Shown: positions 12,563 to 63,128, counted from the first letter of the stretch. The stretch is DNA of 64,000 bases from a virus (IMGVR_UViG_3300046820_001062:1-64000); one strand, 5' to 3'. The notes: generated by a model from the sequence alone, not told the origin. Translations and numbers: made by a program.

Positions 12563-12566
12563 AACC

Positions 12567-33600: not shown

Positions 33601-36600
33601 ACTTCATTTCTTCTAATAGCATCAACAAATTCTTCTTTAGCTTCATCTCTTATCTCCATTAATTCCTCAATATCAATAACAAGATTGTCATAAGATTCTT
33701 TAAGTTCTGCAAAATTCATTGCACCATTGTAGTCAGACTCATCAAATCCTGAATGGTATAGAATACTTAAAGCTTCTTCAGTTATGTTGTAAGAATTATT
33801 TTCAAGCAATGCTTTTGTTTCTTTTTTAATTAAAGCTTTTAAGTCTGCATCCTTACTCATATACTGAACAAACTCAGCATACTTATTTAAGTTTGTGTTC
33901 TTTCCATCTTGATACTCACCATATAACTTAGGATTACCTGATAAGTCAAAGTAATGTGCAAATGTTTGACCATACAAAGCATCAACGTCAAAGTCAGAAC
34001 CTGCAAGTAAGTGTACAAAATGTGGTACAATTACACCATTAAGATTAGAACTATCAATAAAATCAACAACTTTGATTGCAATCATAGAACGCTTGTCCTC
34101 TGTAGGAATACGTACACCAAACATCTTAGTTAAGTTCTGCATGTAGAATCTCTCATGTGCAGCACTTTTAAACAAAGGTTTAGGCATAATTGCTTCTACA
34201 TAGTAAGTCTTAACTCCATTTACTTCTTCAACTGTTACACCAAGAGGTCTTGATTTTACATTAGGATAAGCTGAAGGATTCTTACGATATTGTTCTGTAG
34301 TAATAACATTTCCATTTTCATCTTCAAGTACATTATAACCAAAAGAAGAGATATGTATATTTTTGAAACCAGAACCTTTTTCATCTGTAACATGTTTTGA
34401 ATATTGTGAAAAGAAATAATACTCAAGCATGTTACGCACGCCAGGAAGATTTGCACTATGAACTGGCTTACCAGAAGCATCTACATCAAATAATTTTAAT
34501 GTTGCTGTAGGTGCACCTTGTTCTTCTAAACTTGTACGTATTAATGTAAATATTTTACCAACCTCAAAGTCACCATCTTTTCTCAAGATAGTTTTTAAGT
34601 TAGCTAAGTTAGATACACCAATTTCTTTTAATGTACTTTGATATTCTTCAAGAACACTTGCAATATTATCAATTGCTTTTTGCTCTGAAGCTGTAATACT
34701 TAAACCGCTTGCTTTAGCAATTTCTGCAAGATTAATTAAATCAGCAGCAATAAGGGCCTTGCTTTGTACAGAAAACTTAGCTTTATCCTTAACACCAGAA
34801 GTCTCTACTTGTAAAAACTTAAATTTATTATCTACTTGTAAAGAAGACATTGCAAGATTGATATAACTATCTGTGCCTGCAATTCTTTCTGCCTCTATCG
34901 CATAGTCAACAGGAAGCATTGTAGCATTTTTAGATGCAGTAGTATCCATAAGTTGATCAACTTGATGATACTCCATAGCATTTAAAATGTTATGTAATGT
35001 TTGACGATGAGGTAATGCTTTAAAGTATGTATGAATTTCTTCTACGTTCTTTGTAATTGCATTGTCAATATCTGTAAGTGCACCTAATTCACCAGCAAGA
35101 ACTAAATCTTGACGTTGTCCACGTAAAGAATAAATATCCATGTACAAACCATGAAGTGCATTATGAGCATCTTCTAAAGTTTGCCCAGCTTTTGGTGTAA
35201 GAATGCTTACATCATTTCTGTCAATATAGTTTTCAGATTGTTTATGATAACTATTTCTTGCTGCTGTAACAGTTTTCTTAGGGTTGTTTACAACCTTACC
35301 TGCTTCCATTACGCGTATTTCTGTTTCAGAAAGCTCACGGTAATGCTTAGCAATGAGAGAATGCAATATCTCAGGACTCAATCTACCCATAGATTCATGC
35401 ATATCAATTTGATGCATCAGCGATGAGATACTTTGTCCATCAAATATATCATACATTGATGTACCATAATCCTTAAGAATTTCTTCTCTTACAGATTCTG
35501 ACTCAATGCTTTCATCATTTATAACCTCCTGCTCAGAATAGTAGGGACCATATTGAGGATAGCTTTCATTTATGTAACCCTGTATGGTATTTAAGAACGC
35601 AACTTTGTGGTAACCTTCTTTCATTGTACTACCACCAGCTAATAACTTCTTATTACGCTTAAAGTAGTCAGTTGCATCCTTAACATTCATTGCAATATCA
35701 CCATCAATTATTTCATTGAAATGTAAAGCATTCATCCAGTTGTTAAAGAAAGCATCAGCAACTAATCCTCTCAAATCTGTTGCTGCTTCTAGTTTACCAC
35801 CAGCCTCATTATAATTCTCCTTTGTTTTCTGATAAAGGCCATCAATTGAAACTGCAGGCGCACTGTCAACTCTCAATACAGAAGGTATAAGAGTTGATGT
35901 ATAATAAGTAATAGGTTCTACTTCTGGACCACCAACACCTCTTGTGATTAATTCACCTTTGGCATTTCTTTGTTTTTGAGTAGTTTTTTGTAATATACCT
36001 AAATCAATAAGTTTGGTAGCATGCTTGTTTAATTGTTCTTTAGCATAATTTTCTAAAGTATCCAGTAATGCATCTTTTATTTCTTGATCAAGATCTTCAA
36101 ATGCAATACCCGCTTTTGCAAAATCTGCCAAACCAGTTTTAGTTTCATTAGATTCTAATTCTGGATTAGCACTGAAAAAATCTGCTATCTTATTAAACTT
36201 ATATGCTCTTAAAGATGAATCATCTGTAATAGCTTTAGATTTATCTTGACTATCTAACTTACCATTGTATTTATCAATTATTTTATTAGACTCTTTGTTG
36301 TCAAAGTTTTCTTTGTTCTCAGCACTTCTAGCCCACTCTTTAGCAATACGGTTGTATTCTTGTTTAACAACAGCTTCAAGAGTATCAACAATTTTAAGAC
36401 GTTTGTCAGCATTTAAAACTAATCCTTTAGAATTAGCAAATTGATTATATAATGCTGTTACCAAGAAGTTTGTTTGAGATGCTTCTAACTGAGAAAATGA
36501 ACGTACATAGGTTTGAATTTTTGTAGCTACATCTTTTACTTTTCCATTTTCATCTAACTCTTGTCTAAAACTAGACTCAGTTGTTCTCTGTAAGAACGTA

Positions 36601-39600
36601 AGAATGTTTGTAATGTATAAAGACTTCTCATCAATATTTTTAAAACTCTTTCCTTCTTTTTGTTTTTCACCAATAGTTTGAGACACACCTCCAAACAATG
36701 ATACTTTGAAGTTGTCCATAAACAATTTCATTTCTTTTGCCTTTTGGGTATCTAATCCTTTAAGTAAATCACCTAACATTGCATTATCTGCATAGAATGA
36801 TTCTAAGAAATCTGCATAAAAAGGATCTTCTTTTAAAGTTTCAAGTAAACCTTTTGTACGTATTGACTGAGCAATAATAGTTGCAGGTGTGTAACTTACA
36901 TATCTATAGATAGGTTTACCCTCTGCATTACGTACAGTACTTGGTAATTCATTAGGATCATATTTAACAATGTACTCTGCTGCTTTTTTAATAATGGAGT
37001 TAAAGCGATTAACTGTATCACTCTTGCTGTTCTTTTCATCTAGTAATACTGCAAAGTCATTTGAAGAGATTTTGTTTATACTTATCTTTTCAAAAATATT
37101 AATTACATCAGTAAAGAAATCCTTTTCCAAATACTTCTTCTCAGAAATAAATTTAGAGTGATTATTGTAATGTGTAAGTGGAGTACCTGTAATATTTAAA
37201 GTTGCTTTATTATCAACTTGATCAATTGCCATAATTGACATTCTAATCAAAGATTTAGGAAACTTCATGCCTACATCTTCAAAAGCTTTTTGTAACTCAA
37301 TAGTAATACTTTCTAGTTTTGCATTTTGAGATGTAACATCACTTAAAATAAAACTACTAGTTTTAATTGTACGTGATAACTGTAACAGTTTATCTACAGC
37401 AGCTAAGTACTCTGGATTGTTTTTATTTTCTTTGTACTTCTGAATAACAGAAGTAACTAAATTTCTTTTCTTATTATTAACATCCTGAGAATGTACTTTA
37501 TCAACAAGAGTAAAGTTTCTTGTATCAGTAAGAACTTCATCACCTTCTAAGAATGTTTGAGTTGTTTTAACATCAATCATGACATAATCAATCTCAGTCT
37601 TGTGTAAGACATCAACTATCATGTTGTATAATTGCTTGTTAGATTGAGGCACTCCTGACTCATCCATTTTTGTGTAGCGATTCAACTTATCATAGACAGC
37701 CATTAAATCACTACCAGCACTTGTATAGCCATCCTCAATTTGTTGTTGAGCAATAACTTTGATGTGCTCAATAATATTCTTAGGATCTATTTCAGCAGAT
37801 ATTTTAATAAGAGAACCAAATACTTGTTCACCAGCAATCATTCTAGGAACTTTAATTCCTAATGTTGGATGAACTTGGTCATATCTTACTACCGCTAAGA
37901 ACTTTCTAATCTGTCTTGGTAAAGACTCTAAAGCGTTGATCTCATTAAATGAAGCATCAAAATCAGAAGATTCTGGAACTTCTTGTTGGTCTTCAGCATC
38001 GTCATTTGCAATAGTATTTTCATTTGCACCTGACAATTCTTTTTCAATAACATCTTTATCAGAAGATTTTTCACTACCGTCAAGAATTGAATTAATTTTA
38101 TCAACTTGTTCTTTGACCTGCTTTTTAAGCATTTCATAAGATACTTGACCCAGGTGATTGTCTTGTAATTCTTCTTCACCATATACTTTAACAGAATTGT
38201 TTTTGTTAAATCTGTTATCATAAGATGGATTATCAGTTGTATTTAAATCATACAATGCTTCACCTTTTGCTCTAGCTCCCAACATAAATCTGTAGTTAGC
38301 ATACAAAGGGCCCATTGTTTTAATTACCTTTTCTTTTAATTCAGGATTAGACTTAAACAATTCTGCATTTGTCCTTAGCAAAACATCCATGTTATACTCA
38401 TAGTCCAATACAAGTTGAGCAATCCTATCAAACTTAGTAGAGAATGATTCTTTTTGCCCATCTTCTATTACATAACCCGCTAACATGTTTACAAGTTGAT
38501 CTTGGTCTGCTTTAGACAAGACACTTGTTTTTTGACCAACACCAGCTGGTGTGGATACAATTTGTTTAAGACCTGGAATCAACTCATAAGCAACCTGTCC
38601 ATCATATATACCAGAAGAGATTACTTCATTTCTGTATTGACCATTTTTAATTTTACCATAAACATTGTCAATGTAGTCTCCTTTAGATGTAAACATTGCC
38701 AATAGCTTTTTAAGCATAGCCATAAACTGACCAAGAATACCTTTTGGTTTAGTATTCTTTAACATATAGTTTTGGAATCCATCAGCTAGAATCTCTTCTG
38801 CTTGCAGGCGCGTCATTTCTTCTTTGTTATAAACATAGTTACGTTGACGTGCAAACTCTTTTAGAGCACCTTCAGTAAACTTATTAGCATGCTTTTTATT
38901 ACTTGTAACTGCATTAATAAGATTTTGTCTTTCCTCAGAATTCATTAAGAATCTGAATACACCATGAAAAGCTTCATGATAAATTACACCTTGTCCTTTT
39001 AGTGCATTATTCAAATAAATAACTTTATCTTTAAATGCACCTAGTACAGTTCCGTCTAATTTAGTAAGATCAATTACATCAGCTAAAGATTCATTATCAA
39101 TTAAGAATTGTGGTAATGCTTGTGCTAACCATTCAGAAGCAGCAAGTCTTTGTTCAGCTGTTTCAACAATAACATTTGCATCATCTGTTAAAGAGAACAC
39201 CTCAATGTCAGGAATATCTGTAGTGTCTTCTTCAATTGTATTTAAAGGTTCTTGTTTGTGAATCTTTTCACTCTCTACAATTGGAGCAATTACTTCTTGT
39301 GTTTTAGTAACCTGTGCAACAGCAGCTTTTGGAACTACTGTAAATTTCTTACTACTAGCTTGTAATATTTTAAAGTTTGCAAGATCTTCACGATACTCTT
39401 TACGCTGAGCAGGTTGAGCATATTCTATTCTAGGATATAATACACCAGACTCATCAGTATCAGCTACTAATAGCTCAGGTCTATAAACCCCATTAAATGT
39501 AAAATCTCTTTTTAATTGTTGTACAAACTCTGGGAACATTGTTGTTCTTTCAGCAAGTTTGTTTATAATATTATCAACTAAATATTCTGCAAACTCTTTT

Positions 39601-49052: not shown

Positions 49053-52000
49053 TTATTGTTCTTCCCAAGGAGTAGCGTTAAAAGATGCTGGTAAGGTTGA
49101 ACCACTCATGTATGCTTGTTGAAAATTATTTCTCCATGTAGGTGTTTGTTTTGCAGTTTGCAAATACATATTAGACACCTGATCTGCATATTTTCTTGCA
49201 CTTTCTTCTCCTCTTGTTCCAACAGCTTCATCATATGCTTGCTTCCATGCTGCATTTGCAGTTTGTGTCATTGCAGCTGGGTTATATCCAGTCCCAACAC
49301 CACCTCTTCCTGCACCATATGGATTTTGATATACGTCAGGAGCCATACCAGTTCCTTCATCACCAAACATTTGTCTACCTTGCCCAGAAAAATCTACATC
49401 ACCTAAAATAGGATCAATATAAACTTGCGGGAATAATACATTCTCCATTTGTTTTTTTCTGAACCAGTTAGTTGTTCCATTATTAAATGCTGCAATTTCT
49501 CTCCATTTCTTTTGTTGTAAAGCATTGTCATATTGTTGATTCATGGTTGCCATGTCTTCAACATATTTTTGACGTGCTGTTTCATTACCAACAATTTCTT
49601 GGTTTTGAACTTGTGCACTATTATTGTAAGCTTGATTTACAATTCCAATATTTGCAGCCTCTGTTGTATCTAAAACATTTGCAGCATTAGCAAATCCTTC
49701 TCCAGATGCACCAAGCATTGTTGCTAGTCCCACATTACCATCAGCAGTATTCTCTACTTGATTTTGGTATCTTGCCATCTGTTCTTGATTAGCAGCAAGT
49801 TTTCTTGTAGGATCTAATAAGTCATATCCAGGTGTAACTAAATCAATTTTACCTTGTGTAGGTTCATAACGATTTACTTGATCTGTTACTGTACCAACAT
49901 AGTTTACAATGTCTTGTAGCCACCAAGGTCCTTCTTTTTTAGGTTGCTTTTCAAAAGTTTTAGTAGGAGTACTAATACATTGACCATCAACAACACCTTT
50001 ATCTTTTGAAGCAGCACCTACAGCTTTAATATTTGAACCAGAAGGTGCAACAGGTTGTTCACCTGTTTTATGAGAAACAGAAACAACATTCTTAGTACCA
50101 TCTGTATACTCAACACAGAAATAAGCAACTTCTTGTCCAGGTTGTTCTGGTGGTTTTGGAGCATCAAAAAATCTAGGTACAGAATAAGTTACTTGTCCAA
50201 ACTTAGAATCTCTATAATAAGGATTGTCTTCTTTTTTACCTTGACCTAGTGGTGTAAAGTATGGAACACCAAACTGCTTCATTGATTTTTCATTGATAGC
50301 ATCTTGGAACCAACCTGAAGCTTTATCTCCAGTAGCTTTTCCTGCTTTTAAATCTTTTTGAAATTGAGCAAAACCTCCAGCATATTGAGCATCAATCCAG
50401 TCACCATGTCTTCTTTGAAAATCAGACCATTCTTGTGGAGATAAATCTCCTGACTGTCTTGCTGCTGCATTACCAGATGATAAATAAATACCAGTACCTT
50501 TTACATTAGGTTGATTAGCAAATGAACCAAAGTTTGTTTCTGTATATAATACATTAGGGGAACCAGCTAAAATCTTATTAATGTTGGTAGAACCATATTG
50601 TTCAAATTGAGTATCAGTTCTAGGACCAGACATAATGATTGTACCATTGGCATCTTTCATTATTTTAGTTGCTCCTTTGTAGAAAAGATATCTTACTTCA
50701 CCTTTATCATTTGTAACAGTACCAACAGCAATTTCTTTATTTGGATCAATACGTTGATTACCAGCAGCTTGTGCTTGTTGCTGTGTTCCAACAGTAGTAT
50801 TTAATGTACCTGGTTGTGTTTGTTGAGGAGTACCTTGAACTGTTCCAGCATCTTGATACTGATTCAGTGTAGAACCACCATATCTAAATGATTTAAAAAT
50901 ATCAGCGTCACTTTTACCATTTACATTTTGTACTGGTGCTTTTTTAACTGGTTGTTCTGTCTCAGTTTTTGTTTTTGGTGGTGTTTCAGGTTTGTTTCCT
51001 GACACTTGCTTATTTAAATTAGCAACACTTTCAGAATTTGTTACATCACCCGTATTGCCACTTGTGTCTACATATGTCCATCCAGTTGATGAATTAGCAT
51101 CTTTATAGTAAGTGTATTTATCTCTACCAGCAATTTTATATTCTGTTCCAGTTGGTTTTGCTTTTTCAGTAATTCCATTACCATAAGGACCATATGCATC
51201 TGTTGTATTACCTGTTGCTTGTGCTGCAGGTTTTTGATTCATCCAATCCTTTTTAAAAGTAGCTAAAGGAATTACCTTGTAACCTCCATAAGTATCTGCA
51301 TATGAACCAATATTTTTATCAGGGTCTGAAATTTGTTTTACCTGTACAACAGCTCCGTCACTATCTGTTAATTTATTTTGAGTGACTTTATACTTTTTGT
51401 TACCTACTGTATAAACATCTCCAATTTTTGGCATTGTAGGATCTACAACTGGTTGTGTTGAAGCTGGTGCTGTAGCACTGTAATTTAAAGTATAGTATTT
51501 ATTACCTTGACCTGGAAGTGATACTGCTTGATTCATCCAACCCAAGTTTTTTATACTTGTGTAATAGTCAGGATCAATTAAAGCTTGACCTGCGTTATAA
51601 CCCAAATCAAGTTTTCCATTTTTTTGCATTTCAAGATAATCCTTTAAAGGAAGTTCTGTTATGGTGTCGCCATTTGATAGTTTAATAGCTTTATCAAAAG
51701 TTACCCATTCATCAGAACCTGCACCTGCAGTATCCCAAAAACCTTCATAACGTGATTTAATTTTGTATTCTTTACCATCAATGTAAAACTTCTCACCTAC
51801 TTTACCACCATTTTGATAATTTCTAACAAAGCCACCACGTTTCATTTCTTCTTGTCCTTCAAGAACTTCATGAGCAACACCTTCACTTTTTTCCATACCA
51901 GGCATTTGTGCACCTTGTAAACCAGCCATTACAGATTCAGCAATAGCAGGAACACCATCAGGAAATCCTTTCATTGATTCCTGTACTAAAGCAAGCATAC

Positions 52001-52493
52001 CCAATTTTTGAGTATTCTTTTTTAGCATTTCAGCAGCAGAACGTTTTTGAATAGCATCAGTGTCATCACTTTTTAAGTCTTGAACATACTGATTAATTTG
52101 ATATTTCTTTGCAATTTCCGCAGGAGTGTATCCACCTTTCTTTTCCTTCAATCCAAAAATAGTCTCAAGAACTTCTTTGTCTTTGATTCTTAATTTTTTA
52201 GTATCAGAAAATATAAAGGAACCTTCAGGAATATTTACAGGCATACCACCTTTAGAGTGACGTTTTCCAACAAATGTAAATTGTTCTAGAAAACCATCTC
52301 TATTGATATCACCAACTACTGTTTCACCACCCTCTACTTCAATGTTTGCTTCTTCTTTAGGAACAGCACCCATAGTATTTTTAACATTACTTGTGCCTTC
52401 ACCAGAATTAGTGAAACTAACATTTCTACCAACTAAACTATAATCTTGTTGGTCTCCAGGTTTTGGTGCTTTTTTGATTCTAATCTTTTGCAT
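49053..52493 (-). CDS. Virion cargo protein (1146 aa) with xxxGG-bounded variable cassettes
   Basis: N-terminal NIEVEGGETV...GKRHSKGG...GSFIFSD block; motif pairs MKRGG/YQNGG and FRYGG/YQDAG; C-terminal WWLQD...Q-rich helix. Confidence 0.75.
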   Translation of the reverse strand: MQKIRIKKAPKPGDQQDYSLVGRNVSFTNSGEGTSNVKNTMGAVPKEEANIEVEGGETVVGDINRDGFLEQFTFVGKRHSKGGMPVNIPEGSFIFSDTKKLRIKDKEVLETIFGLKEKKGGYTPAEIAKKYQINQYVQDLKSDDTDAIQKRSAAEMLKKNTQKLGMLALVQESMKGFPDGVPAIAESVMAGLQGAQMPGMEKSEGVAHEVLEGQEEMKRGGFVRNYQNGGKVGEKFYIDGKEYKIKSRYEGFWDTAGAGSDEWVTFDKAIKLSNGDTITELPLKDYLEMQKNGKLDLGYNAGQALIDPDYYTSIKNLGWMNQAVSLPGQGNKYYTLNYSATAPASTQPVVDPTMPKIGDVYTVGNKKYKVTQNKLTDSDGAVVQVKQISDPDKNIGSYADTYGGYKVIPLATFKKDWMNQKPAAQATGNTTDAYGPYGNGITEKAKPTGTEYKIAGRDKYTYYKDANSSTGWTYVDTSGNTGDVTNSESVANLNKQVSGNKPETPPKTKTETEQPVKKAPVQNVNGKSDADIFKSFRYGGSTLNQYQDAGTVQGTPQQTQPGTLNTTVGTQQQAQAAGNQRIDPNKEIAVGTVTNDKGEVRYLFYKGATKIMKDANGTIIMSGPRTDTQFEQYGSTNINKILAGSPNVLYTETNFGSFANQPNVKGTGIYLSSGNAAARQSGDLSPQEWSDFQRRHGDWIDAQYAGGFAQFQKDLKAGKATGDKASGWFQDAINEKSMKQFGVPYFTPLGQGKKEDNPYYRDSKFGQVTYSVPRFFDAPKPPEQPGQEVAYFCVEYTDGTKNVVSVSHKTGEQPVAPSGSNIKAVGAASKDKGVVDGQCISTPTKTFEKQPKKEGPWWLQDIVNYVGTVTDQVNRYEPTQGKIDLVTPGYDLLDPTRKLAANQEQMARYQNQVENTADGNVGLATMLGASGEGFANAANVLDTTEAANIGIVNQAYNNSAQVQNQEIVGNETARQKYVEDMATMNQQYDNALQQKKWREIAAFNNGTTNWFRKKQMENVLFPQVYIDPILGDVDFSGQGRQMFGDEGTGMAPDVYQNPYGAGRGGVGTGYNPAAMTQTANAAWKQAYDEAVGTRGEESARKYADQVSNMYLQTAKQTPTWRNNFQQAYMSGSTLPASFNATPWEEQ

Positions 52494-52599: not shown

Positions 52600-55500
52600 T
52601 TAGTCAAGATATTCTATCTCTCCTCCCATTGCAAGAATGCGCTTAATCTCTTCTTCATCAGCATAAAACTCACCGCCTTCAGCATAGTGTCTAGTTGCTG
52701 GAATGAAAGGAATTAAACCACCATATCTAGCAGATGACATCTTAGTTCCAAAGTCTTGAATAGGGGTATTGGCAACTAAACCAAAATTAGAAGCAGGTCC
52801 TGCGTTTAATGTGTAATTACCAAAAGGATTAATAGCATTTTGAGGATTGTATCTGTTCATTGTGTTGCCAATTTCCTTCAATCTTTGTTCATATTCTTTT
52901 TGATAATCTTTAGCACCAAGTACTTGATTAACCATTCCTAATCCAGCAAGTGCATTATTAGCAGCAACAATACCTGCAGTATCACCACGTTTTGTTTGAG
53001 TAAATCCATTTGCTGTTGGTGAAGTAGTTCCAGGTTGTGCATTACCACCAGGTGTTTGAGCTGTTTCTACACCTCCCACACTTGTAGCTGTTGCAGGTGT
53101 GTTTGCAGCTTTAAAGCCAGCAAGATACTGCTGATAATCATTCATATCTCTACCTTCTTCACCCATAAGACCTCTACCATTTTGAGCCATCCATTCATCA
53201 TATGTTAATGGTGTATCACCACCATCTTGATATCTACGCATAGTACCACCATATCTAGCTAAATTCTCATAAGAAGGACCAGATGGATATCCACCATCAA
53301 AATCACCAGGACCCATAGGACCTGAAGGAATCATGTTATCTTTTCTTCTTTTCTCATTAAGAGGAGAATCCTGATACATTTCAGGAGATGACCAATCTTT
53401 CATAATAGCATCTTGTTTTTCTTTTCTTGCTTGTATTACATCTTGAAGTTTACCTGATTCTTGTGTTTCAGGGTTTACAACATATTCTGTGGTCTTTGGT
53501 TTTGCAAACAACTTCTCATAACCAAGAACTGCACCAGATAATCCAGCAGCAGCGCCAGCAATGCCTTTTACTGTACCAAGCAAACCTTTGTTAGGTAAAG
53601 CCCAAACCATTGATCTTGGATCTCCAAGTGAATTTGCTGCAGCCAAGCCTCTGTTCCAAGAATTATTCTTTAATGAATTAAGAGTATGTGATTCAGTTAC
53701 ATCAGTTCTTTGATCTCCTGCTGTATATGTATCATAATCATATGCTCCACCATCTTGCATTTTAGTTTTAGCCATTTCTAAAAACTTTTGCAAATCATAC
53801 TTAACACCTTCACGTTCAAAATCAGCCATCATGTTTTTAGCAATTTTTTGCCTGTTCTGTGGATCATTAACTTGTGTCAAGATATTTGCAATTCCTTCTA
53901 CCATTTCAACATCGTTTTCACCACCTTCTGCCCATGTACCAAAACGTTTATGCCAGTATAATGGACTGAATGGATCTTTTGCTTTTGCAGAATCTCTTCC
54001 ACCCATTCTATCCCAGAATCTGTCTTTGCGTTTCTCAGAACCATGTTGTTTAAAATCTTGCATTCCTTTCCATCCGCCATGCACCACTTTATACTGATCA
54101 CCTTTCTTTGCAAGAACCATCCATTTTTTACCAGGACGTGTTGACTGTTTTTTAACACCAACTTTTGTAAAGCCCATATTCTTATAGCGTGAAGGAATAG
54201 TTCCTCCTTCTGCCATTTCATAAAGTTGACCACCAAGTTCTTTTGCAAAGTTTCTAGCAAAGTTTGCTTTCTTAACCATTTCAGGTGAGTACTCTTCTTT
54301 ATTATTTAAAATATGTTCAGCAGCTTCTTGCACAGACATTCCCATTTTAGTTGCTTGTGCTTTAAATGTACCTTTTTTTCTAGGGTTTATTTTAATACCA
54401 CCATATTTCATTTCATCATCTGACTCTAATAATTCAGAAGAAGTATCTTCAATGTCTTCTGTATCTAAAGGAACATCTTCTTCTTCCATATCAGATTCTG
54501 CAATATCATTCATTGCTGATTGAATTATTCCTTGTCCTTGTTCTTCTGACAAACCTTGTTCCATTAACATCTTAAGAATATCATCAGGATTAGTTCCACC
54601 TTCTAACATCATGGAGATTTCTCCTAATGCATCATCAATATTTCCTGTCTTTTGTGATTCTTCAGATTCTTGTTGTTGAGGTTGCATTTCTCCACCATAT
54701 TGTTTTACATAGAAACCACCATCTGGTGCAGGCGCCCATGATTCACCACTTGCTAAAAATTCTTGATAGTTTGCAGGATTATTAGGATTACCAGAAGTAG
54801 CTACAGGTTTTCTTACTTGTGCAGCAATCTCTTGTTTCTTTCTAGCTAACATTGCCTCATCAAAAGCTTGTTGTTGTTGTGCTGTTGCGTTATCATAGTT
54901 TACAAACTTTTTAAGATTATCTGCTTGAGGTCCTGCAAAGTTTCTATTTGCAGATGCAAAATCAGAACCATAATCAGTTCTTACACCATTAATCTCAGTA
55001 CTAACTTTTGGTACCATTTGATTAAGAGTTTTTAATCCTAAGAATCCATCTACTCTAGAGATACCATTCTTAAAACTATTTGCTGTTTTAACACCCATTT
55101 GACCAGATGCAGTATTACCTGCAGCCATGTTTAAAAAGTAAGATTGATAGTCTTTTACTTTGTTACTATCAATTGCAGCATTAGGATTTTCTTGATTGTA
55201 TTTTTTAATCAATTCATATCCTAGTTTTTTATCATGATTGTATCTATCATCAGAAGCAGCACCACTTTTCTTTGCATACTTTACAAACTGATTCCAATTA
55301 TTAAGATCTTGTGGAGACAATGAATTTGTTTCAGGTTCTCCACCATATTCCATTTGACCACCACATTCCATACAACCACCATTCATCATTTCTGGAATAT
55401 AACCACCAAATGCATAATCACTTACTTCCATACCAAATTCTGCTTTTCTCCAGCTTCCACCTTTTTCTTTATACCATTTTGCAGCATAACCATTTGCGTA

Positions 55501-57132
55501 TGCAGAAGGATAGACATCATATTTAGATTTGGCAGCAGCCTTAGCTCTTGACCATAATTCAGGATTAGTAGGAACATTTCCTCCTTTTGCCATCATGTCT
55601 AGTTCATTATAATCTTTCATTGTAAAGTTGTTTTCTATTAAATTTTCTCCACCAAACTCATTTCTTTTATGATTATAGTCAATGCGTTTACTTGAAGTTT
55701 TTGATCTTTTAAATTTATCTTTTTCAGATTGACTTAATTCTGAAGCTGTTTTTGGTGTGTCACTGTTTACTCTTTTTGAAGGTCTACACGCAGGATAACC
55801 AGCACGTTTTTCTCCTTCTTGTCTTCCACACTCTTTTCCTGTTTTTACATCAATCCACTTCTCAGCAAACCATCTATCTAATCCACCATGTTGTCCTCCA
55901 TCTTTAGCGTAAGGACTAAATTGATTAGTTTCTTTTTTAGATATAGTATTTAACATGTCTACAATTTGTTTATCATTGTAAACATCTCTTAATTGTTCCA
56001 ATGGATCATACCCTGTTTTAATATGATCTTTATATTTTTTTAAAATTTCAAGTGTAACTTTTTGATTAAATGGATTATATAATCCTTGATTTTTTGCATT
56101 ATATCTAAAATTCAAAAGTCTAGCTCTTGTTTCTGTAGGATCAGCTACATAATTTTGAAACTCACTTAACTGTCTTTTTCCATCCTTACCATATGCATAG
56201 GTTTGTATTTTTTTCAAATCTGAATCTGGCATTAAATAACCAGATGCATCTGAAGCATGACCAAGTTCATGTACTAAAGTTTGATTAGCAGCATCTAAAT
56301 AAGACTCATCATGTAAATGTATATCATAATTATTTTTTGGAATAAGGGCTGCAATGCCTGCATACTTTTGAGAAGGTGCAAAAATATAACTGTTTAAACC
56401 AGTTTTACTAAACAAATCATTTGCACCTGTTAATTCATTTTTTCTTGTTGCAAAACCTGCCGTACCTGAATTTGGATCACTACTAGATTCTTTACTATCT
56501 AACTGTTTATTAAAGTTTTTAAATGTATGTACATTTACATTAGCTTGTTTAATTAAAGCGTTTCTGTCATTAATAATTTTATCAGCATATATGTAGTTTA
56601 TTCCAGAAGGATCATCTTTATCTACACTATCATATAACATTTGCTTACCCATGGCAGAGTTATTCCAATTGGTTAAAAACTGTCTTTCTGCAAATGCTTG
56701 ATTTGTTAATGGAGGCAGCATTCCTGCTTGTCTAAGTTTTCTTGTATCTGCATTTGGATTCAATGAGCTAGCACCACCATACTGCATTTTCCAATTAGAA
56801 GATGGTTGCTCTAATTCAGGTTGCATTGTATAATCAGTAGTTATTTCTGAACCTACAGGTAAATCTTGTGCAGCAACTAAATATCTTTGATTACCCTGTG
56901 CTATGCTAATAGCATTTGGTTCAAAAGAATGATTATGAAATTTTCCTATTTTACCAACAGGTTGTCCATTTGAATGAGCAAGTCCTATAACTTCACCTTC
57001 TCTTATGTTTTTATTTGTAAAAAGCCCTTTACCTTGAATTTTACTTTTATCAACAAAAACATTATTTTCTTCTTGAGCTTCTTGCGCCCTAGAAGAAATA
57101 AACTTCATCAATATTTTATTCTTATCATTCAT
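52600..57132 (-). CDS. Multi-module GG-punctuated protein (1510 aa): SET domain, zincin, DUF5872-like and DUF5754-like modules
   Basis: SET motifs SKIQGKGLF, NHSFEPN, EITTDY; HELGH; RWFAEKW...CGR...YPACRP; YPSAYA; KKWMV...VHGG...DFKQH; about 20 xxxGG motifs. Confidence 0.85.
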   Translation of the reverse strand: MNDKNKILMKFISSRAQEAQEENNVFVDKSKIQGKGLFTNKNIREGEVIGLAHSNGQPVGKIGKFHNHSFEPNAISIAQGNQRYLVAAQDLPVGSEITTDYTMQPELEQPSSNWKMQYGGASSLNPNADTRKLRQAGMLPPLTNQAFAERQFLTNWNNSAMGKQMLYDSVDKDDPSGINYIYADKIINDRNALIKQANVNVHTFKNFNKQLDSKESSSDPNSGTAGFATRKNELTGANDLFSKTGLNSYIFAPSQKYAGIAALIPKNNYDIHLHDESYLDAANQTLVHELGHASDASGYLMPDSDLKKIQTYAYGKDGKRQLSEFQNYVADPTETRARLLNFRYNAKNQGLYNPFNQKVTLEILKKYKDHIKTGYDPLEQLRDVYNDKQIVDMLNTISKKETNQFSPYAKDGGQHGGLDRWFAEKWIDVKTGKECGRQEGEKRAGYPACRPSKRVNSDTPKTASELSQSEKDKFKRSKTSSKRIDYNHKRNEFGGENLIENNFTMKDYNELDMMAKGGNVPTNPELWSRAKAAAKSKYDVYPSAYANGYAAKWYKEKGGSWRKAEFGMEVSDYAFGGYIPEMMNGGCMECGGQMEYGGEPETNSLSPQDLNNWNQFVKYAKKSGAASDDRYNHDKKLGYELIKKYNQENPNAAIDSNKVKDYQSYFLNMAAGNTASGQMGVKTANSFKNGISRVDGFLGLKTLNQMVPKVSTEINGVRTDYGSDFASANRNFAGPQADNLKKFVNYDNATAQQQQAFDEAMLARKKQEIAAQVRKPVATSGNPNNPANYQEFLASGESWAPAPDGGFYVKQYGGEMQPQQQESEESQKTGNIDDALGEISMMLEGGTNPDDILKMLMEQGLSEEQGQGIIQSAMNDIAESDMEEEDVPLDTEDIEDTSSELLESDDEMKYGGIKINPRKKGTFKAQATKMGMSVQEAAEHILNNKEEYSPEMVKKANFARNFAKELGGQLYEMAEGGTIPSRYKNMGFTKVGVKKQSTRPGKKWMVLAKKGDQYKVVHGGWKGMQDFKQHGSEKRKDRFWDRMGGRDSAKAKDPFSPLYWHKRFGTWAEGGENDVEMVEGIANILTQVNDPQNRQKIAKNMMADFEREGVKYDLQKFLEMAKTKMQDGGAYDYDTYTAGDQRTDVTESHTLNSLKNNSWNRGLAAANSLGDPRSMVWALPNKGLLGTVKGIAGAAAGLSGAVLGYEKLFAKPKTTEYVVNPETQESGKLQDVIQARKEKQDAIMKDWSSPEMYQDSPLNEKRRKDNMIPSGPMGPGDFDGGYPSGPSYENLARYGGTMRRYQDGGDTPLTYDEWMAQNGRGLMGEEGRDMNDYQQYLAGFKAANTPATATSVGGVETAQTPGGNAQPGTTSPTANGFTQTKRGDTAGIVAANNALAGLGMVNQVLGAKDYQKEYEQRLKEIGNTMNRYNPQNAINPFGNYTLNAGPASNFGLVANTPIQDFGTKMSSARYGGLIPFIPATRHYAEGGEFYADEEEIKRILAMGGEIEYLD

Positions 57133-60100
57133 TACCTTGAACTATTGAGATGTTTTGAATTTGTTAGTTTTAAAATCATTTTTTTATCACCACTTACATT
57201 CTTACGCAAGATTACTTTGTTACCATAGTGTCTAAACTTCTTATGTTCAGTAGGTGTCTTAAAGTAATTTACATAATCAGGATTAATTGTTCTTTCATAA
57301 CCTGAACATTTTGTAATCCACATAGGTGTGTCATTACCAGAAAACTCACCTCTATCTTTTGTAACATCCCAGAATTGATTAAATCTAAATCTATTTTCTT
57401 CTTTAGAATAAAGAATATCAATACCTGTTGTTGTTGCTTGTGGATAGTTTACTAAATCTAAAGGATTATTTTTACCTTTAAGTTTCAGTTTAAGTAATCC
57501 AGACATTTGCTCAGAGTTATGTATAATAGCTCTGTCAAAGTTTTCATCTAAGATATGATTAAAATCTTTACCATCATTGAAGAATTTATAAACGTCTAGT
57601 GTGTATTCAATACTTCTTAATGTAGTGATGTTATTAGGTGTTGTCACAGGGTATTCTACTTCCCATGGATAATCTACACCATAGTAGTTAGCAAAACTAT
57701 CCCAGCGATCATTGTGTTTCCAAAATCCTCTACCTTTAATTGTAAAGAAGTGTTCATGTGACGGCATCAACAAACTAGGTTTCCAATCATGGAAACTAAT
57801 CCATAACTTTTGTTTAGGATCATAACTGATAGTCCAACCACATGGTTTAAAACATTTAGGATCATCATAAGCACAAGGGCATTTGATAATTGTAGGCTTA
57901 TTTACAATAACTTCTAATTCACATATTGTACTTTGATCTCCTCTAACACTAATCAAACTATAAGTAGTAGTTGCTGTTGGTGTTACAATCATTGAATCTA
58001 CAGGGTTAACTGTATAATTACCAGGCATCAATGTAACTGAATCTGGATTACCTGTTACAGACCAAGTTAAATTGATTGATTCTCCTTCATTTATAACATA
58101 AGGAACAGAATCAAATGTGCACTCTAAAGTAACAGGAGGACATGGAACATTTAAAATTGTATCTGATATAATACTACCTACTATACCAGTTGCAGCTTGA
58201 CTTTTTGTACCACCTGTAGTATTTGCATAGATGTCATGAATTAAAGATATGGTAGGAGCAACTGATGGACTAGTTACACCAACACCTGTTGCAATTGGAA
58301 ATATTTTAATATCTGCTGCTGCAGCATTGTTTGCAATAGTCTGTGCATTAACATCGTCTTGACCAACAACATAGTAATCATCTGTACCAGATGGTCTAGC
58401 ATCTGTAATCATAATGATTAACTTAATAGCATCTGTCCTAAATGTACCTGCGTCACCATCAACTGCCATTTGAATACCAACATCTGTTGGTTCTGGTTCA
58501 TTACAACCATTACCTAAAGTTACTGCTTGTAATGCTGCATTAAAAGCTGTTATGTTATTAGCTGACATTGAATGCCTAACCACGTTGTCTAATGCACAAG
58601 TTTGATTTACAGTGATTAATCCAAATCTGTAATCATTGTTTGATTTTGTTACAGCATCTGCAGCAATGTTTGATATACTAGTTTTTAAGTTATTCAATAC
58701 ACCACCCATACTACCAGTAATATCTAACACAAAAACCAAATCTAATGGTGCAGTACAGAATACAGGTTCTTCAGCCATTAGCATCATAGCTGGTCTACCA
58801 GCAACAGATATTTCACCTAATGTTCCTTGTAATGATATTGATGGTGTTTCTCCGCATGAATACACAGGAGTAACAGAAATTTTATAATGTGAATCTAAGT
58901 TTAGGGTTTCACTTTGTGGAACAGAACCTGAAAAATAGTTTATAGTTGAAGGTATAGTATAAGTATTTGCAGGATAACTTAATGTTTCTCCTTTCATAAA
59001 TGTACTATAGGTATAGTCACCCATAAAGCTATCATAAGTTCCTAACCAAATCTGAATAAGATATTGCTGTGGATTTTCTTGATTTGATGCTAATGTGGGA
59101 TGACTCCAATCTACAGTAACAGTTCCATCTTCATTTAGCCCACCTACAGTCATAGATGTAATTTGTGTTGGTACACATTCAGAAGGAGTACTACCGCCAC
59201 CTGTAGTTCCACATATGTAATATGGTACACCAGATGGATCATCAAAATGTAAATCTGATCTCAAAGGAACGTAGTCTTTCTTAGTAAAGTATACTAATTC
59301 ATACTGAGGATCATAAATAGACTGTACACCAATACCTGCAACAGGGTTGTCATAAAGTGGATAATCAGGATATTGACGTAGTAACTCTGAAGGTAAGTTT
59401 TCTGCAAACCAGAATTTCATACCATTTCTAGATATCTCATCAAGACTGCCGGCATAATGCATAATTTTACCTGACTTCTGAGAAGCATAAAATAAACCAT
59501 GTGGAGTATTTACAGCTGATCTTGAAGAAATACATGCACCATATTCTAATGCGTCATCAGCATTAGTAAGACTTTGCATGTTTTGTTGGAATAATCCACC
59601 ATCACCAATTGTAATTTTAACACCACCTTTAGTCTGTAATTGATCAACACCTACAAATTGTGTAGGTTCTGCATTCTCAAATAATATTACAGCACCTGTG
59701 CCATTTAAAGATTTTATTGTGCTGATTTTTCCTCCAAAATCTTTATAGTTAAGTGGTAAAAAGTTTCTCCAGTTATCTCGTTTGAGACCTGACTGCTGTT
59801 GGAGAGAGTACACTCCACGTTTAGGGTAGTACTCAAAACATGTGCTATATATGGTTGGGTCATAGTCTCTTGGGAGAATTTGTCCCCAGGTAGCAAAGTT
59901 GTTGAACAGTTTGGATGTGCTAAGTGATAAGTCATACTTGTTATAAATTGGTTTGGTAATCAAATCTGATCTGAACATCAATTGCTCATCATTAAATGAA
60001 TTACCATATACATCATAGAACTTTTGAAAATCTTCCTCACCATAGTCTCTAAAAGCCATGTTAAGTTCAGACTCTGTGTAAAAATCTCTGATACCATTAT

Positions 60101-63100
60101 GAAATAAATATGCAAAACACTTTCTTAAAGTCCATGTACCAGTTCCACCAGCTCTGTCCATTCTATGAAAACTACTTGGTGTTGTAAAATTTAATTGTGG
60201 TACAATTCCCAAAAATCCTCCTAATGATATATTCATGTCAAAGTCTGTTGTATCAAACTTATCATAATCAATCCAATATCTTGGAGCAGGGCCATTTACA
60301 TAATTTCTATAATTGTACTCAGTAGTATTTGGCATGTCAAACATCCATGTGTTAAAGAACATGTATGGATTTTTTTCAGTGTATCTGTTAATATAGATAT
60401 CACCACCAAATATAACAGAAGTGTTATACTTTGTTATTAACTGAGGAGTTGTTGAATATATACATGAATCTGTTGGCAATTGAACAATAGAACTCAATTG
60501 ACCATACTGATTTTCAAAATCAACTTTTAATGCACCATAATAAGCAACAGTATTTGTTGTAATAGAATCTTTAACAGGATTAGAACGATCAATGCCACCA
60601 TCCTGAACTCTATGTTTTGTATTATCAGTAGTTGAAGAAACATCTGGTAAATCTGATGTTAACTTGACAGCTACATATTTGTTTCTATTTAGATTGTTAA
60701 TTCTATATGTGGCATCAAAATCATGAATACCTGAACCAATATATTTAGCTCCTGAATCTGCAACTTTTCTTCTAAAGGCTCTTGGTAAACCAGAAGGAAC
60801 AGATGAGTTAGAAACAGGTGAGTATGAATCATAAAAACCATGACTGTTATATTGAAGCATGTACTGTCTTTCTTTACCAAGTTTTCTAAAAATTTCTAAA
60901 ACTTGATCTGTACCTTGCCCCCAATAGTATGCTCCTGAAGCAATCATCACAGCAATACCTGCAATTGTTGTTGCCACACTACCAGATCCCCAAACACTCA
61001 ATGCACTTGTTGCTCCACCTAAAATAAGATCTCCTATTGCAGAAGCTGGTCCTGATTCTCTTGATGCTTCAGCGCCACCCAAATAAGCACCTGTACCTAG
61101 AGCTAATGCCCAAGGATCATTTTTTGCAGTGTATGTAGTTTTACCTACAGCTGCTACTAAAGCAATACCTAAACCAATAATTCCAGCAGTTACAAAAGCA
61201 CCATCTGTTAAGATTACATGTTTAGGATGTTTATGAGGATATTCAAACTTACCAATTACTTTACCTCTTTCCTCTGTGTATATTTTAACATAGTTTGAAC
61301 CAATGTATGGTTTAACAAAATTTGTTTCTACAGCATGAAATGATAAATAATTTCTCTTATGAGTATCTAATTTTGATGCAGATTCTACGCCAGATTGACT
61401 TCCTTTTCCTTCATCAAGAATAGAATAGTCATTACTTAAGAAGTTATCAGGTCTAATATCATTGTAAGGATAGTTTTGAAATAATCCTTTTCTACCAGTA
61501 CTACCTTGAATATCAAACTCAAACATGTTGTTAAATAAACCTTTAGCAACAATAGTTCTATTTCCTTCTCTTGAACCCCTTAATATCTCATAACCTACAA
61601 TATCTTTGATTGCTTTTAAATCCTCGTCAACTGGATGTTGTATGTTTGAAAATTGAACACCAAGATTATAAATATAATCACCACCTTGACTATGAATATG
61701 AATTGTTTCATTAGAAGGCATTTTGTGGTGTCTAATTGGTTTACCACATAGTGTACCCCATACTTCAGGTTTATCATCTGGATATTTTTCAGTTGATTCC
61801 CAGTATGCCATATCACCTTTAGCAATAATAACACCGCCATCTTTGGTTGTACCAGATGCTAAATATTTTGTAGCAGTATCATATACTTGCCAAACTTGAG
61901 TTTCGTTTGAATAAACAACATCTGATGTTGACACAGAAGCTGTATCAGCAGGAGTTGCTAATCTACCAGGAATATGAAAAGAAGCACTTCTTGCACCAGT
62001 TTTGTATACCCATCTAATAAAGAATGCATACACTTCATCACGCATGTATCCTGTAACATTACCGCCATTGTGATAATATGAAGAAGGATATTGTGCAGCA
62101 ACCCATTCTACTTTGATATCATTTGCTTGTTTCTGATAATTAAAATAAGGTTGAGTAGTTACCCCAGTTCTGATAAGATAGTTATTGACAGAGTGCATTT
62201 TCTCACTCTTTTCATAAACTACAGATTTTAAAGGTATTACTGCAAGTTCAACTGTTGGTAAACTTTGATTATATAAGTCAAGATGTACTGATGTTTGTCT
62301 AATTGAATAGTTACCAATTTTTTTAGCAATAGTTTGCTGATTAATTACAGCAATAACAACAAGTTCATATTCATCATAATCCTTGTCTAAGTTCTCTATT
62401 GTAATATCTAATGCACCACCTATTCCAGTATGATCCCACAATGCTTGTGGTTGACTTGGAATAGAATAGTCAGTAAGTCTTATTCCATTTTCAGAATAAG
62501 CTACAACAGCCATGTAACTACCATTATTTAACTGACCAGCTCCTTGAGCCTTTTTTACAGTAACGCAAGGTTGTGTTACAAGAGGATGTAATCTTATAGC
62601 ATCGCAATCTAGCTCTGTGGTATATTCAGGAATAAAACAATCCTCATCTTGTGATAAGTTGTTACCTGTAGTTTTATATGGAACCCTATCAAGATTTAAT
62701 ACTCTATCAGGATTTAAATTGTCTTGAAAATATGTTGAATAAGTACAGTCATAGTTTTCCTTTGTGACTGCAGTAATCAAATGTGTTTTTTTAAAACCAA
62801 GACATGGATCATTTACAACTTTTGTATATGAACAATCTCTTTCATCAAAGATACCTATCTCTGATGAAACATCATTTGTAGAGAATATAACCCAAGATGT
62901 TTTAGACTTGTGAGAAATACCAATAACATCATAAGTTGCGTTTACACAAAACTTATTAGAAGGTTCATTTCCTATGGAACCAGTCTCACCATAGTGAGCA
63001 TTGTTAATAGCATTTACCGCATTAGTCCAAAGACCTTCTGAAATGTAAATATCAGTATAGTCTTTGACCATACCTTTATTAAAGGCATTTGTCTTGGCAG

Positions 63101-63128
63101 CACTTGTATTTGTAAAATTCTCGCTCAT
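57132..63128 (-). CDS. Tail stabilisation/muzzle protein (1998 aa) with inserted FN3-like and vWA domains
   Basis: Beta-rich scaffold with GDIYINRY and WTISY...WISFHDWKP blocks of crAss-like stabilisation proteins; MIDAS DLVFVLDITGSMG; follows tail ring gene. Confidence 0.75.
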   Translation of the reverse strand: MSENFTNTSAAKTNAFNKGMVKDYTDIYISEGLWTNAVNAINNAHYGETGSIGNEPSNKFCVNATYDVIGISHKSKTSWVIFSTNDVSSEIGIFDERDCSYTKVVNDPCLGFKKTHLITAVTKENYDCTYSTYFQDNLNPDRVLNLDRVPYKTTGNNLSQDEDCFIPEYTTELDCDAIRLHPLVTQPCVTVKKAQGAGQLNNGSYMAVVAYSENGIRLTDYSIPSQPQALWDHTGIGGALDITIENLDKDYDEYELVVIAVINQQTIAKKIGNYSIRQTSVHLDLYNQSLPTVELAVIPLKSVVYEKSEKMHSVNNYLIRTGVTTQPYFNYQKQANDIKVEWVAAQYPSSYYHNGGNVTGYMRDEVYAFFIRWVYKTGARSASFHIPGRLATPADTASVSTSDVVYSNETQVWQVYDTATKYLASGTTKDGGVIIAKGDMAYWESTEKYPDDKPEVWGTLCGKPIRHHKMPSNETIHIHSQGGDYIYNLGVQFSNIQHPVDEDLKAIKDIVGYEILRGSREGNRTIVAKGLFNNMFEFDIQGSTGRKGLFQNYPYNDIRPDNFLSNDYSILDEGKGSQSGVESASKLDTHKRNYLSFHAVETNFVKPYIGSNYVKIYTEERGKVIGKFEYPHKHPKHVILTDGAFVTAGIIGLGIALVAAVGKTTYTAKNDPWALALGTGAYLGGAEASRESGPASAIGDLILGGATSALSVWGSGSVATTIAGIAVMIASGAYYWGQGTDQVLEIFRKLGKERQYMLQYNSHGFYDSYSPVSNSSVPSGLPRAFRRKVADSGAKYIGSGIHDFDATYRINNLNRNKYVAVKLTSDLPDVSSTTDNTKHRVQDGGIDRSNPVKDSITTNTVAYYGALKVDFENQYGQLSSIVQLPTDSCIYSTTPQLITKYNTSVIFGGDIYINRYTEKNPYMFFNTWMFDMPNTTEYNYRNYVNGPAPRYWIDYDKFDTTDFDMNISLGGFLGIVPQLNFTTPSSFHRMDRAGGTGTWTLRKCFAYLFHNGIRDFYTESELNMAFRDYGEEDFQKFYDVYGNSFNDEQLMFRSDLITKPIYNKYDLSLSTSKLFNNFATWGQILPRDYDPTIYSTCFEYYPKRGVYSLQQQSGLKRDNWRNFLPLNYKDFGGKISTIKSLNGTGAVILFENAEPTQFVGVDQLQTKGGVKITIGDGGLFQQNMQSLTNADDALEYGACISSRSAVNTPHGLFYASQKSGKIMHYAGSLDEISRNGMKFWFAENLPSELLRQYPDYPLYDNPVAGIGVQSIYDPQYELVYFTKKDYVPLRSDLHFDDPSGVPYYICGTTGGGSTPSECVPTQITSMTVGGLNEDGTVTVDWSHPTLASNQENPQQYLIQIWLGTYDSFMGDYTYSTFMKGETLSYPANTYTIPSTINYFSGSVPQSETLNLDSHYKISVTPVYSCGETPSISLQGTLGEISVAGRPAMMLMAEEPVFCTAPLDLVFVLDITGSMGGVLNNLKTSISNIAADAVTKSNNDYRFGLITVNQTCALDNVVRHSMSANNITAFNAALQAVTLGNGCNEPEPTDVGIQMAVDGDAGTFRTDAIKLIIMITDARPSGTDDYYVVGQDDVNAQTIANNAAAADIKIFPIATGVGVTSPSVAPTISLIHDIYANTTGGTKSQAATGIVGSIISDTILNVPCPPVTLECTFDSVPYVINEGESINLTWSVTGNPDSVTLMPGNYTVNPVDSMIVTPTATTTYSLISVRGDQSTICELEVIVNKPTIIKCPCAYDDPKCFKPCGWTISYDPKQKLWISFHDWKPSLLMPSHEHFFTIKGRGFWKHNDRWDSFANYYGVDYPWEVEYPVTTPNNITTLRSIEYTLDVYKFFNDGKDFNHILDENFDRAIIHNSEQMSGLLKLKLKGKNNPLDLVNYPQATTTGIDILYSKEENRFRFNQFWDVTKDRGEFSGNDTPMWITKCSGYERTINPDYVNYFKTPTEHKKFRHYGNKVILRKNVSGDKKMILKLTNSKHLNSSR

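Follow-up and report, generated by a model that had tools for sequence, protein, structure and literature searches.

A Gly-Gly junction motif in a C1-type cargo protein of a crassvirus

Crassviruses are the most abundant human gut phages, and the way in which several megadaltons of their protein are loaded and injected is an open question (PMC10172136). In crAss001, the gene after the muzzle gene encodes the cargo protein C1 (gp45) and is followed by the genes for C2 and for three polymerase-associated cargo proteins, all of them packed in the virion, where a single gp45 chain is taken to span from the tail to the capsid (Bayfield et al. 2023, PMC10172136; PDB 7QOG and related entries). Here we describe an open reading frame (ORF) of 1510 amino acids (aa), designated P0001, located at positions 52600..57132 on the minus strand of the viral sequence IMGVR_UViG_3300046820_001062:1-64000, and a short element, hydrophobic residue-x-x-Gly-Gly (GG), that recurs along it. 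The window, that is, the whole stretch analysed, comprises the first 64 kb of a 123,730-bp virus record with a completeness rating of 98%. Pfam searches matched Crass_capsid, CrAss_Ring_1 and CrAss_Ring_2 in this genome, and the source virus is a crassvirus. The ORF is single and intact, lies directly downstream of a gp44-like muzzle ORF (57132-63128), which it abuts, and has 292 mosaic homologues; the gene order is the same at the cr128_1 and crAss001 loci. With high confidence, it encodes a C1 (gp45)-type cargo/ejection protein that has grown into a 'polyvalent' protein, laid out as an N-terminal leader, about 12 small, mostly helical or basic modules and a conserved C-terminal part that contains hydrophobic segments.

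The 1510-aa protein shares with crAss001 gp45 the position right after the muzzle gene, a hydrophobic Gly-rich segment, one small module (55% identical to that of the cr128_1 homologue and weakly similar to that of crAss001) and the type of motif, which in gp45 occurs as SAYGG, FAEGG, KAFGG, NAFGG and FAYGG and brackets both the resolved pieces and the insertion/deletion cassettes. It differs in being nearly twice as long, in carrying enzyme and DUF modules not present in gp45 and in lacking the portal-bound domain. Full-length comparison gave no significant match, the homology being restricted to one ~60-aa module and a weak match over the hydrophobic segment. A second related group is that of the polyvalent proteins, in which many unrelated domains lie on one virion-delivered chain with extensive mosaicism, and zincin-like HExxH modules, proposed to process the chain, are frequent; the passages of that account consulted here describe no conserved junction motif, and the paper nowhere mentions a SET domain or crAss (Iyer et al. 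2017, PMC5512222). With Pfam SET, DUF5872 and DUF5754 domains plus further modules, and with mosaic relatives, the 1510-aa protein falls within the 2-15 unrelated domains that mark this class; unlike that group, it has no match to Pfam MPTase-PolyVal.

A hydrophobic residue followed by Gly-Gly also stands at the unit ends of virion-packaged pieces in the adenain, African swine fever virus (ASFV) pS273R and double-glycine C39 systems. The adenovirus protease and the ASFV polyprotein protease cut virion precursors after GG, the consensus being (M/I/L)-X-G-G↓X, and double-glycine leaders carry hydrophobic residues at -4 and -7, a spacing that differs from that of the motif of the 1510-aa ORF. T4 and phiKZ/SPN3US-like phages likewise package internal/ejection proteins, deliver them with the DNA and have short conserved motifs at the processing points; their prohead protease also trims capsid proteins and cuts after Glu.

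Junction motifs of the 1510-aa protein

Translation of the ORF recovered all 13 strict [MYWF]xxGG motifs and seven variants counted in a preliminary description of this locus, with GG at positions 119, 412, 494, 517, 576, 585, 591, 597, 813, 845, 911, 967, 976, 1070, 1128, 1295, 1304, 1471, 1486 and 1503. The 13 strict motifs compare with a mean of 1.8 and a maximum of 9 in 20000 shuffles. GG pairs are themselves in excess (28, against a mean of 14.1; 4 of the 20000 shuffles reached 28), and given GG, M/Y/W/F stands at -3 in 13 of 28 pairs, where 3.6 would be expected (binomial P = 1.5e-5). Enrichment relative to the rest of the proteome was borne out as well: a screen of 122 genome ORFs of at least 80 aa, from which nested ORFs had been dropped, returned ~37 strict motifs, 13 of them in the 1510-aa ORF, and per residue the strict motif is ~12 times rarer in the rest of the genome. 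The giant RNA polymerase-type cargo proteins of the same virus are nearly devoid of it, the 3773-aa cargo protein having no strict motif. Across the family the motif is a general feature, with 1280 strict occurrences in 152,000 residues of 121 homologues and the extended consensus [M/Y]-[Q/E/A/K]-x-G-G-[E]-[I]-[P]. A junction element of the form hydrophobic(M/Y/W/F)-x-x-G-G-x-(I/L)-P is present at every between-module junction. No description of this motif was found in the literature searched.

The position of the motif at module borders is backed by three independent lines: homology, predicted structure and free-standing modules. As regards homology, the 292 homologues cover between 6 and 74% of the 1510-aa query in BLAST and are mosaics whose breakpoints, in the 120 homologues compared, fall at GG, in agreement with the preliminary description. 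Of 453 internal ends of BLAST high-scoring segment pairs (HSPs), 73% lie at most 8 aa from a GG, compared with 27% on average and 66% at most when the GG sites were placed at random in 5000 trials. These ends cluster at residues 120, 401-411, 599-600, 786-813, 1069-1071 and 1129-1131, each cluster being a GG site, and the module content of relatives shows that cassettes are exchanged or absent between GG sites. P0002, for instance, is 99% identical to P0001 and differs only by the absence of aa 121-400, from just past MQYGG to the run-up of AKDGG. In the C-terminal part, a 44-sequence alignment gives the GG columns scores of 8-9 of 9, against 0-5 for the columns around them.

The AlphaFold model of aa 401-1135 consists of confident small modules alternating with segments whose predicted local distance difference test score (pLDDT) is below 50. 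Fifteen of the 19 GG in this region fall in the latter, and six or seven come directly after the end of a helix. The earlier claim that the motifs lie at the borders of about ten modules holds for most motifs, but not for the GG at 558, 845, 1019 and 1044, which the model places inside modules. Foldseek comparison of this model with the PDB returned nothing at E<=0.001; the model of the C-terminal region, with a pLDDT of 56, is of low confidence and was not used for claims on folds. By sequence, the whole 1510-aa protein gave noise-level SET matches in the PDB and no match to gp45.

Free-standing counterparts of the modules locate the borders to the residue in some cases (all module coordinates from here on refer to the minus strand). 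The N-terminal part of DUF5872 (Pfam; aa 418-492, 55657..55881), which lies between QHGG and NEFGG, corresponds to a free 87-aa protein of Prochlorococcus phage P-SCSP2 whose first residue falls right after the QHGG of the 1510-aa ORF. The DUF5754 (Tlr6F-family) module (Pfam; aa 978-1067, 53932..54201; nearly invariant columns) is enclosed by MAEGG and WAEGG; free DUF5754 proteins (91-108 aa) start with M-(A)-I-P-x-R-Y-K and several end in K-T-W, exactly between these two motifs. We counted the junctions of DUF5754 in all non-identical family members and related loci. A GG lies at most 12 residues upstream of the module in 155 of 155 internal cases and in none of the ten in which it starts the protein, and at most 8 residues downstream in 165 of 165 internal cases and in none of the five in which it ends the protein; as the proteins share ancestry, figures such as 165/165 do not represent independent events. 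At these junctions the neighbouring modules and the flanking residues vary and GG is kept. Free-standing DUF5872 proteins likewise have no motif at their free ends. Therefore, the motif marks fusion points rather than cargo as such: the GG element is a property of the junction and of neither adjoining module.

These bare ends bear on a role of the motifs in loading. The preliminary description had envisaged a capsid-loading signal on every module, a notion that the two zero counts for DUF5754 weaken. In a broader version, the motifs would be docking peptides for the portal, the tail-barrel rings, the muzzle, DNA or an assembly factor, providing multivalent loading and ordered release. Short conserved motifs in disordered regions would suit such a role, both resolved pieces of crAss001 gp45 begin at or just after a motif (SAYGG; AFGG), many homologues have GG at the end of the conserved N-terminal leader and tandem arrays of motifs are compatible with avidity. 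Nevertheless, free or terminal DUF5754 modules and free DUF5872 proteins do without the motif at their free ends, and the giant RNA polymerase-type cargo of the same virion is almost free of it; we thus regard docking as unlikely.

The motif has the same placement in crAss001 gp45, which contains SAYGG, FAEGG, KAFGG, AKDGG, NAFGG and FAYGG. The resolved piece 214-245, a tail-barrel helix, starts four residues after SAYGG, and the resolved piece 425-552, the portal-bound domain, starts with AFGGW, followed by FAYGG (PMC10172136). Among 34 aligned, non-identical relatives of gp45 from IMG/VR, the stretch 264-372 (~110 aa), between FAEGG and AKDGG, varies always exactly at GG motifs: it is deleted (FAEGG-GIHIKK), shortened (FAFGG-NLFDE) or replaced by ~280 residues (FADGG...KAEGG-GIHIKK). 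A second variable stretch, after FAYGG or FDKGG, behaves alike. Across the crAss001-type gp45 genes of loci L092-L130, the cassettes between FAEGG and AKDGG measure 0, ~45, ~110 or ~280 aa.

At the gp45 cassette junctions, the joined DNA shares GGTGGTGG or GGTGGAGG. That cassette deletions join at these sequences would fit a motif that has no function at the protein level and is a by-product of GGTGGTGG-type microhomology recombination or of the common descent of linker and module, and the kinship within the family, which deprives the junction counts of independence, would fit it too. Nevertheless, such an origin seems very improbable to us: the motif DNA within the 1510-aa ORF has little in common beyond GGWGGW, the flanks and neighbouring modules vary and GG stays, the preferences at -3 and +3/+4 lie at the protein level, and the motif persists in crassvirus lineages that have diverged deeply. 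A DNA-level repeat as the sole cause was rejected, GGWGGW being all that the motif codons of this ORF share.

The portal-bound domain of gp45 (residues 425-552) is absent from the 1510-aa ORF. A counterpart may reside in the next gene, a 1146-aa cargo protein (49053..52493, minus strand; motifs MKRGG, YQNGG and FRYGG), whose N-terminus (EVEGGE...SFIFSDTKKLRIKD...YTPAEIAKKY) aligned with gp45 aa 480-545 in hhalign (E = 0.003) and gave collinear weak BLAST hits; direct BLAST between this neighbour and gp45 was not significant, and the profile comparison is suggestive. Since a domain resembling the portal-bound one lies in the 1146-aa ORF, C1 appears to be split over two genes here. In the relatives L076-L081 the same region consists of four to five consecutive ORFs, with one break inside the portal-bound domain. 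Judged from these sequences, one, two or several genes, depending on the lineage, seem to carry the function of C1.

In four of these loci (L076, L077, L078 and L081, at ~9800-12900 of each), the separate ORFs follow the muzzle gene with 4-nt ATGA overlaps and measure ~61 aa (L077, L078), ~105 aa (a free DUF5754), 200-600 aa and ~400 aa; the break inside the gp45-type portal-bound domain reads ...YIFSDKLTI (stop) / MKTK..YKGMTFAQASKK. The split of C1 bears on whether its tail-side and capsid-side parts must share one chain.

Intact chain or cleavage at the junctions

Among the explanations considered, we tentatively favour GG as a hinge or helix-stop junction of an uncut cargo protein. The chain would be packaged uncut, like beads on a string, and the Gly-Gly would end the last helix of a module and serve as a hinge, allowing each small module to fold, to unfold and to pass portal and tail separately. 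Modules could then be inserted, lost or swapped at the GG points without harm to their neighbours, and GGTGGTGG-type coding microhomology may aid these exchanges. We infer packaging, ejection, the hinge role and the lack of cleavage, presence in the virion and ejection being predicted from synteny. Helix capping, as seen in the structural model, would account for part of the motif pattern.

Two features of the ORF itself argue for an uncut chain. One is the HExxH zincin-like module (HELGH, aa 288; aa 121-411, 55900..56772), a candidate protease in cis recognised by its motif, which is dispensable, given that the 99%-identical P0002 lacks it. The other is the last motif, LAMGG-EIEYLD, which ends the protein: a cut there would free six residues only, and related C-termini have G-Y instead, which therefore points to a structural turn.

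The opposite reading takes the motifs as cleavage sites, at or next to which a polyprotein would be cut by a packaged HExxH enzyme or by a host enzyme, possibly after ejection. The freed effectors would be the SET methyltransferase, Tlr6F/DUF5754 and DUF5872 modules and, in relatives, peptidoglycan hydrolases. The candidate proteases would be the in-cis HExxH module, the gp47-type HExxH of the 3773-aa protein or a host enzyme, and cutting would take place inside the capsid or, in better accordance with the crAss001 map, in the cell after ejection. Several observations favour it: the motif is specific to junctions, strictly conserved and placed in disordered linkers; other phages encode the modules as small genes of their own, and in L076-L081 the locus is divided into four to five ORFs; tandem arrays exist, and tails and leaders are kept in the split relatives; HExxH modules are found in 25 of 121 homologues; and YHEAFH is kept between the 3773-aa protein and crAss001 gp47. 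The corresponding HEAFH motif (aa 984-988 of the 3773-aa cargo protein; 38964..38978, minus strand), a candidate packaged zincin, shares YHEAFH with crAss001 gp47 aa 2157, and the region aligns with E = 1e-7; this zincin-like candidate is without any Pfam match. There are also published proposals of this kind. Fused crassvirus RNA polymerase polyproteins have been considered 'likely cleaved', and the orthologues of phi14:2 gp65 have a zincin-like domain, according to Drobysheva et al. (doi 10.1101/2020.03.07.982082). In the work on polyvalent proteins, zincin domains are proposed to process them, and DdrB of phage P1 is reported to be cut (PMC5512222).

We searched all six frames of the 98%-complete genome for proteases that could act at such sites. 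PF02902 (C48) and PF00770 (C5) gave no match at E<=1, and no match was obtained in the six-frame genome with PF03412 (C39), with PF03420, PF04586 and PF00574 (prohead S77/S78/ClpP-like) or with MPTase-PolyVal. Pfam sweeps of 102 further ORFs yielded no peptidase among the matches listed (for the second set, the best 25 of 61 families). The sequence context of GG also differs from that of known GG-directed proteases: the conserved hydrophobic residue, three positions before the first G, occupies P5, and P4 is polar (Q/E/A/K), whereas P4 is hydrophobic for adenain, PLpro and double-glycine leaders. The comparison that the preliminary description drew with adenain and the ASFV enzyme, along with the Ulp1/adenain-like or prohead protease that it proposed to look for, was therefore not supported. 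Unlike the adenain, pS273R and C39 systems, this genome encodes no cognate cysteine protease, and the junctions are known here from sequence; unlike T4 and phiKZ/SPN3US-like phages, it has no detectable S77, S78 or ClpP protease. Further objections to cleavage are the dispensability of the in-cis HExxH module, the four GG that AlphaFold places within folded modules and the hexapeptide that the C-terminal motif would release.

Published virion data for crAss001 also speak on this point. We re-analysed by peptide mass the 2018 matrix-assisted laser desorption/ionization (MALDI) peak lists of gel bands 3-9 (PMC6235969 supplement). In order, these bands (~270-70 kDa) corresponded to gp50+gp47, gp49+gp44, gp20, gp26+gp22, gp22+gp25, gp25 and gp23. 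In crAss001 virions the large cargo proteins are therefore intact, with gp47, gp49, gp50 and gp44 at full size. In the case of gp45, the built chain 425-552 starts with AFGGW and therefore runs through one such GG (G428-W429) in the virion, and the 2023 paper quotes gp45 peptides that are of the ordinary tryptic kind and lie away from GG (PMC10172136). Taking both sides into account, we consider cleavage at the junctions possible but doubtful.

Several points weigh against the uncut hinge. A bare hinge needs no invariant GG with preferred residues at -3 and +3/+4, and ordinary linkers drift freely. Motifs stand in a tandem array with nothing between them (aa 572-598), and around GG the split relatives have retained short tails and leaders. 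A motif confined to junctions in disordered linkers, together with modules that also exist as separate genes, resembles the cleavage sites of viral polyproteins, and there are two HExxH candidates, the in-cis module and the YHEAFH of the 3773-aa protein kept in crAss001 gp47. The density of crAss001 covers one site and represents the virion state only. Less weight attaches to gp45 never rising above shuffled controls in bands 3-9 (70-270 kDa), where gp46 did not exceed chance either; full-size gp45 was thus not seen there, a weak point in favour of cleavage, and gp45 is missing from the proteins that the 2018 text names as detected (PMC6235969).

Cleavage after ejection would not conflict with the crAss001 virion map. 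In its most specific form, the packaged gp47-type zincin, which is conserved throughout the order, would cut the GG junctions once the protein has been ejected and would free a strain-specific cocktail of effectors into the host (SET methyltransferase, Tlr6F/DUF5754, DUF5872 and cell-wall hydrolases), making the protein a cassette-exchangeable crassvirus payload. We hold this particular scenario to be somewhat unlikely.

Modules of the protein and neighbouring genes

The protein begins with a leader (aa 1-22, MNDKNKILMKFIS..., 57067..57132) that is conserved at the N-terminus of many homologues among the 121 family members and that might dock at the muzzle or the tail. Two classes of leader occur in the homologues P0002-P0121: M-x-[DN]-K-N-x-ILMKFIS, often ending in MREGG, and MK[NK]WLD[KR][FY]xxGG, some C-termini ending in the related NWL[DE]xY.. 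sequence. The SET-domain module (aa 23-114, 56791..57066; Pfam SET at aa 56-101, E = 3.8e-7), whose weak PDB matches are KMT2 SET domains, is followed by MQYGG (aa 116-120) and by the HExxH module. The latter recurs as HExxH[AST]xD in 25 of 121 homologues, at varied positions, and is missing in 79%; searches in Pfam (including MPTase-PolyVal) and PHROG gave no match, and the Atlas returned LPD23 as a weak lead (0.86).

Downstream of the N-terminal DUF5872 part comes, after MAKGG, its C-terminal part (aa 519-571, 55420..55578; YPSAYAN), which is the second stretch of the Pfam DUF5872 match, is modelled with a pLDDT of ~90 and shares 78% identity with the C-terminal end of a protein from a Synechococcus phage. 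The tandem array YAFGG, MMNGG, MECGG and MEYGG (aa 572-598, 55339..55419) holds no module between its motifs, has a pLDDT below 50 and is a place where HSP ends pile up. It is followed by a variable module of ~210 aa (aa 599-808, 54709..55338), present in ~23 of 120 homologues and ending before PDGG/KQYGG, which consists partly of confident helices and found no fold match in the PDB with Foldseek. Next are a small helical module with an acidic linker (aa 815-912, 54397..54690), in which AlphaFold predicts helices at aa 832-880 and then disorder, with MLEGG inside the fold and MKYGG at the end, and the module in common with gut crassvirus C1/gp45 (aa 913-968, 54229..54396), ending in KELGG, with 55% identity to the cr128_1 gp45 homologue (E = 3e-16) and a weak match to crAss001 gp45 aa 374-419 (E = 0.011).

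No other part of the family is as conserved as the DUF5754/Tlr6F module, which has ~60 nearly invariant columns. In the phage contigs L079, L088 and L091, a free DUF5872-like gene (112-118 aa, FPSARASQ) adjoins a free DUF5754 gene (91-98 aa); this gene pair represents the same two modules that are fused in the cargo protein. Beyond DUF5754, a mobile 58-aa module (aa 1072-1129, 53746..53919) lies between WAEGG and MQDGG and is N-terminal in many homologues; in P0020-P0029, HSPs of query residues 1069-1131 map to subject residues 12-82. The conserved C-terminal region (aa 1136-1510, 52603..53727), defined by the 44-sequence alignment and modelled with low confidence, contains two hydrophobic Gly/Ala-rich segments and, in its variable linkers, the GG islands ARYGG, YQDGG, ARYGG, YAEGG and LAMGG. 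Homologues have the conserved C-terminal tail GGEIEF[LI]D, with the variant G-Y-EFEII. Relatives carry additional domains (glucosaminidase, YkuD, SLT, LysM and DUF3597), so that the homologues include peptidoglycan hydrolases.

The minus-strand operon runs from a ring protein through a 123-aa ORF, the 1998-aa muzzle-like ORF and the 1510-aa ORF to ORFs of 1146, 874 and 1474 aa, and then to the 3773-aa protein, which combines gp47-like and gp50-like RNA polymerase parts, and finally to a gp49-like protein of 1965 aa. Synteny and the mosaic homologues support the view, already present in the preliminary description, that the muzzle gene and the genes of the other ejected proteins enclose a payload protein of modular and exchangeable make-up. 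The muzzle-like protein (57132..63128, minus strand) matches crAss001 gp44 in BLAST (E = 2e-4) and a PHROG virion structural protein; a PDB sequence search with it gave zero matches. It has an inserted von Willebrand A domain (aa 1463-1615; Pfam VWA, E = 6.5e-10) without counterpart in the matched part of crAss001 gp44. In the 3773-aa protein (30606..41927, minus strand), the gp47-like part was recognised by BLAST with E = 1e-7 and the gp50-like part with E = 3e-12. The gp49-like cargo protein (24707-30604, minus strand) shows a match to the PD-(D/E)XK nuclease superfamily at aa 139-262 (Pfam E = 1.8e-5). Pfam, PHROG and Atlas searches with the giant neighbours of the 1510-aa ORF gave no identification.

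Significance of the junction rule

Placing DUF5754/Tlr6F and DUF5872 inside a virion protein that is predicted to be ejected provides a lead to their function. The DUF5754 Pfam family is named Tlr6f in the literature on polinton-like viruses (PMC12220804), in which Tlr6F has been reported; phages have members of both families, and the two are also listed for the genome of a giant algal virus. If the junctions were cleavage sites, they would reveal a new processing system in tailed phages without a prohead protease, and if the zincin performed the cleavage, this would give the first assigned roles to the widespread Tlr6F family and to the conserved zincin.

One rule, according to which modules are joined only via hydrophobic-x-x-Gly-Gly and cassettes are gained or lost exactly there, holds both in a distant IMG/VR crassvirus and in crAss001-type gut phages. 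Such a rule would show where to divide these proteins into domains for structural and functional work and where to graft test cargo, and it would explain how the injected payload of crassviruses diversifies.

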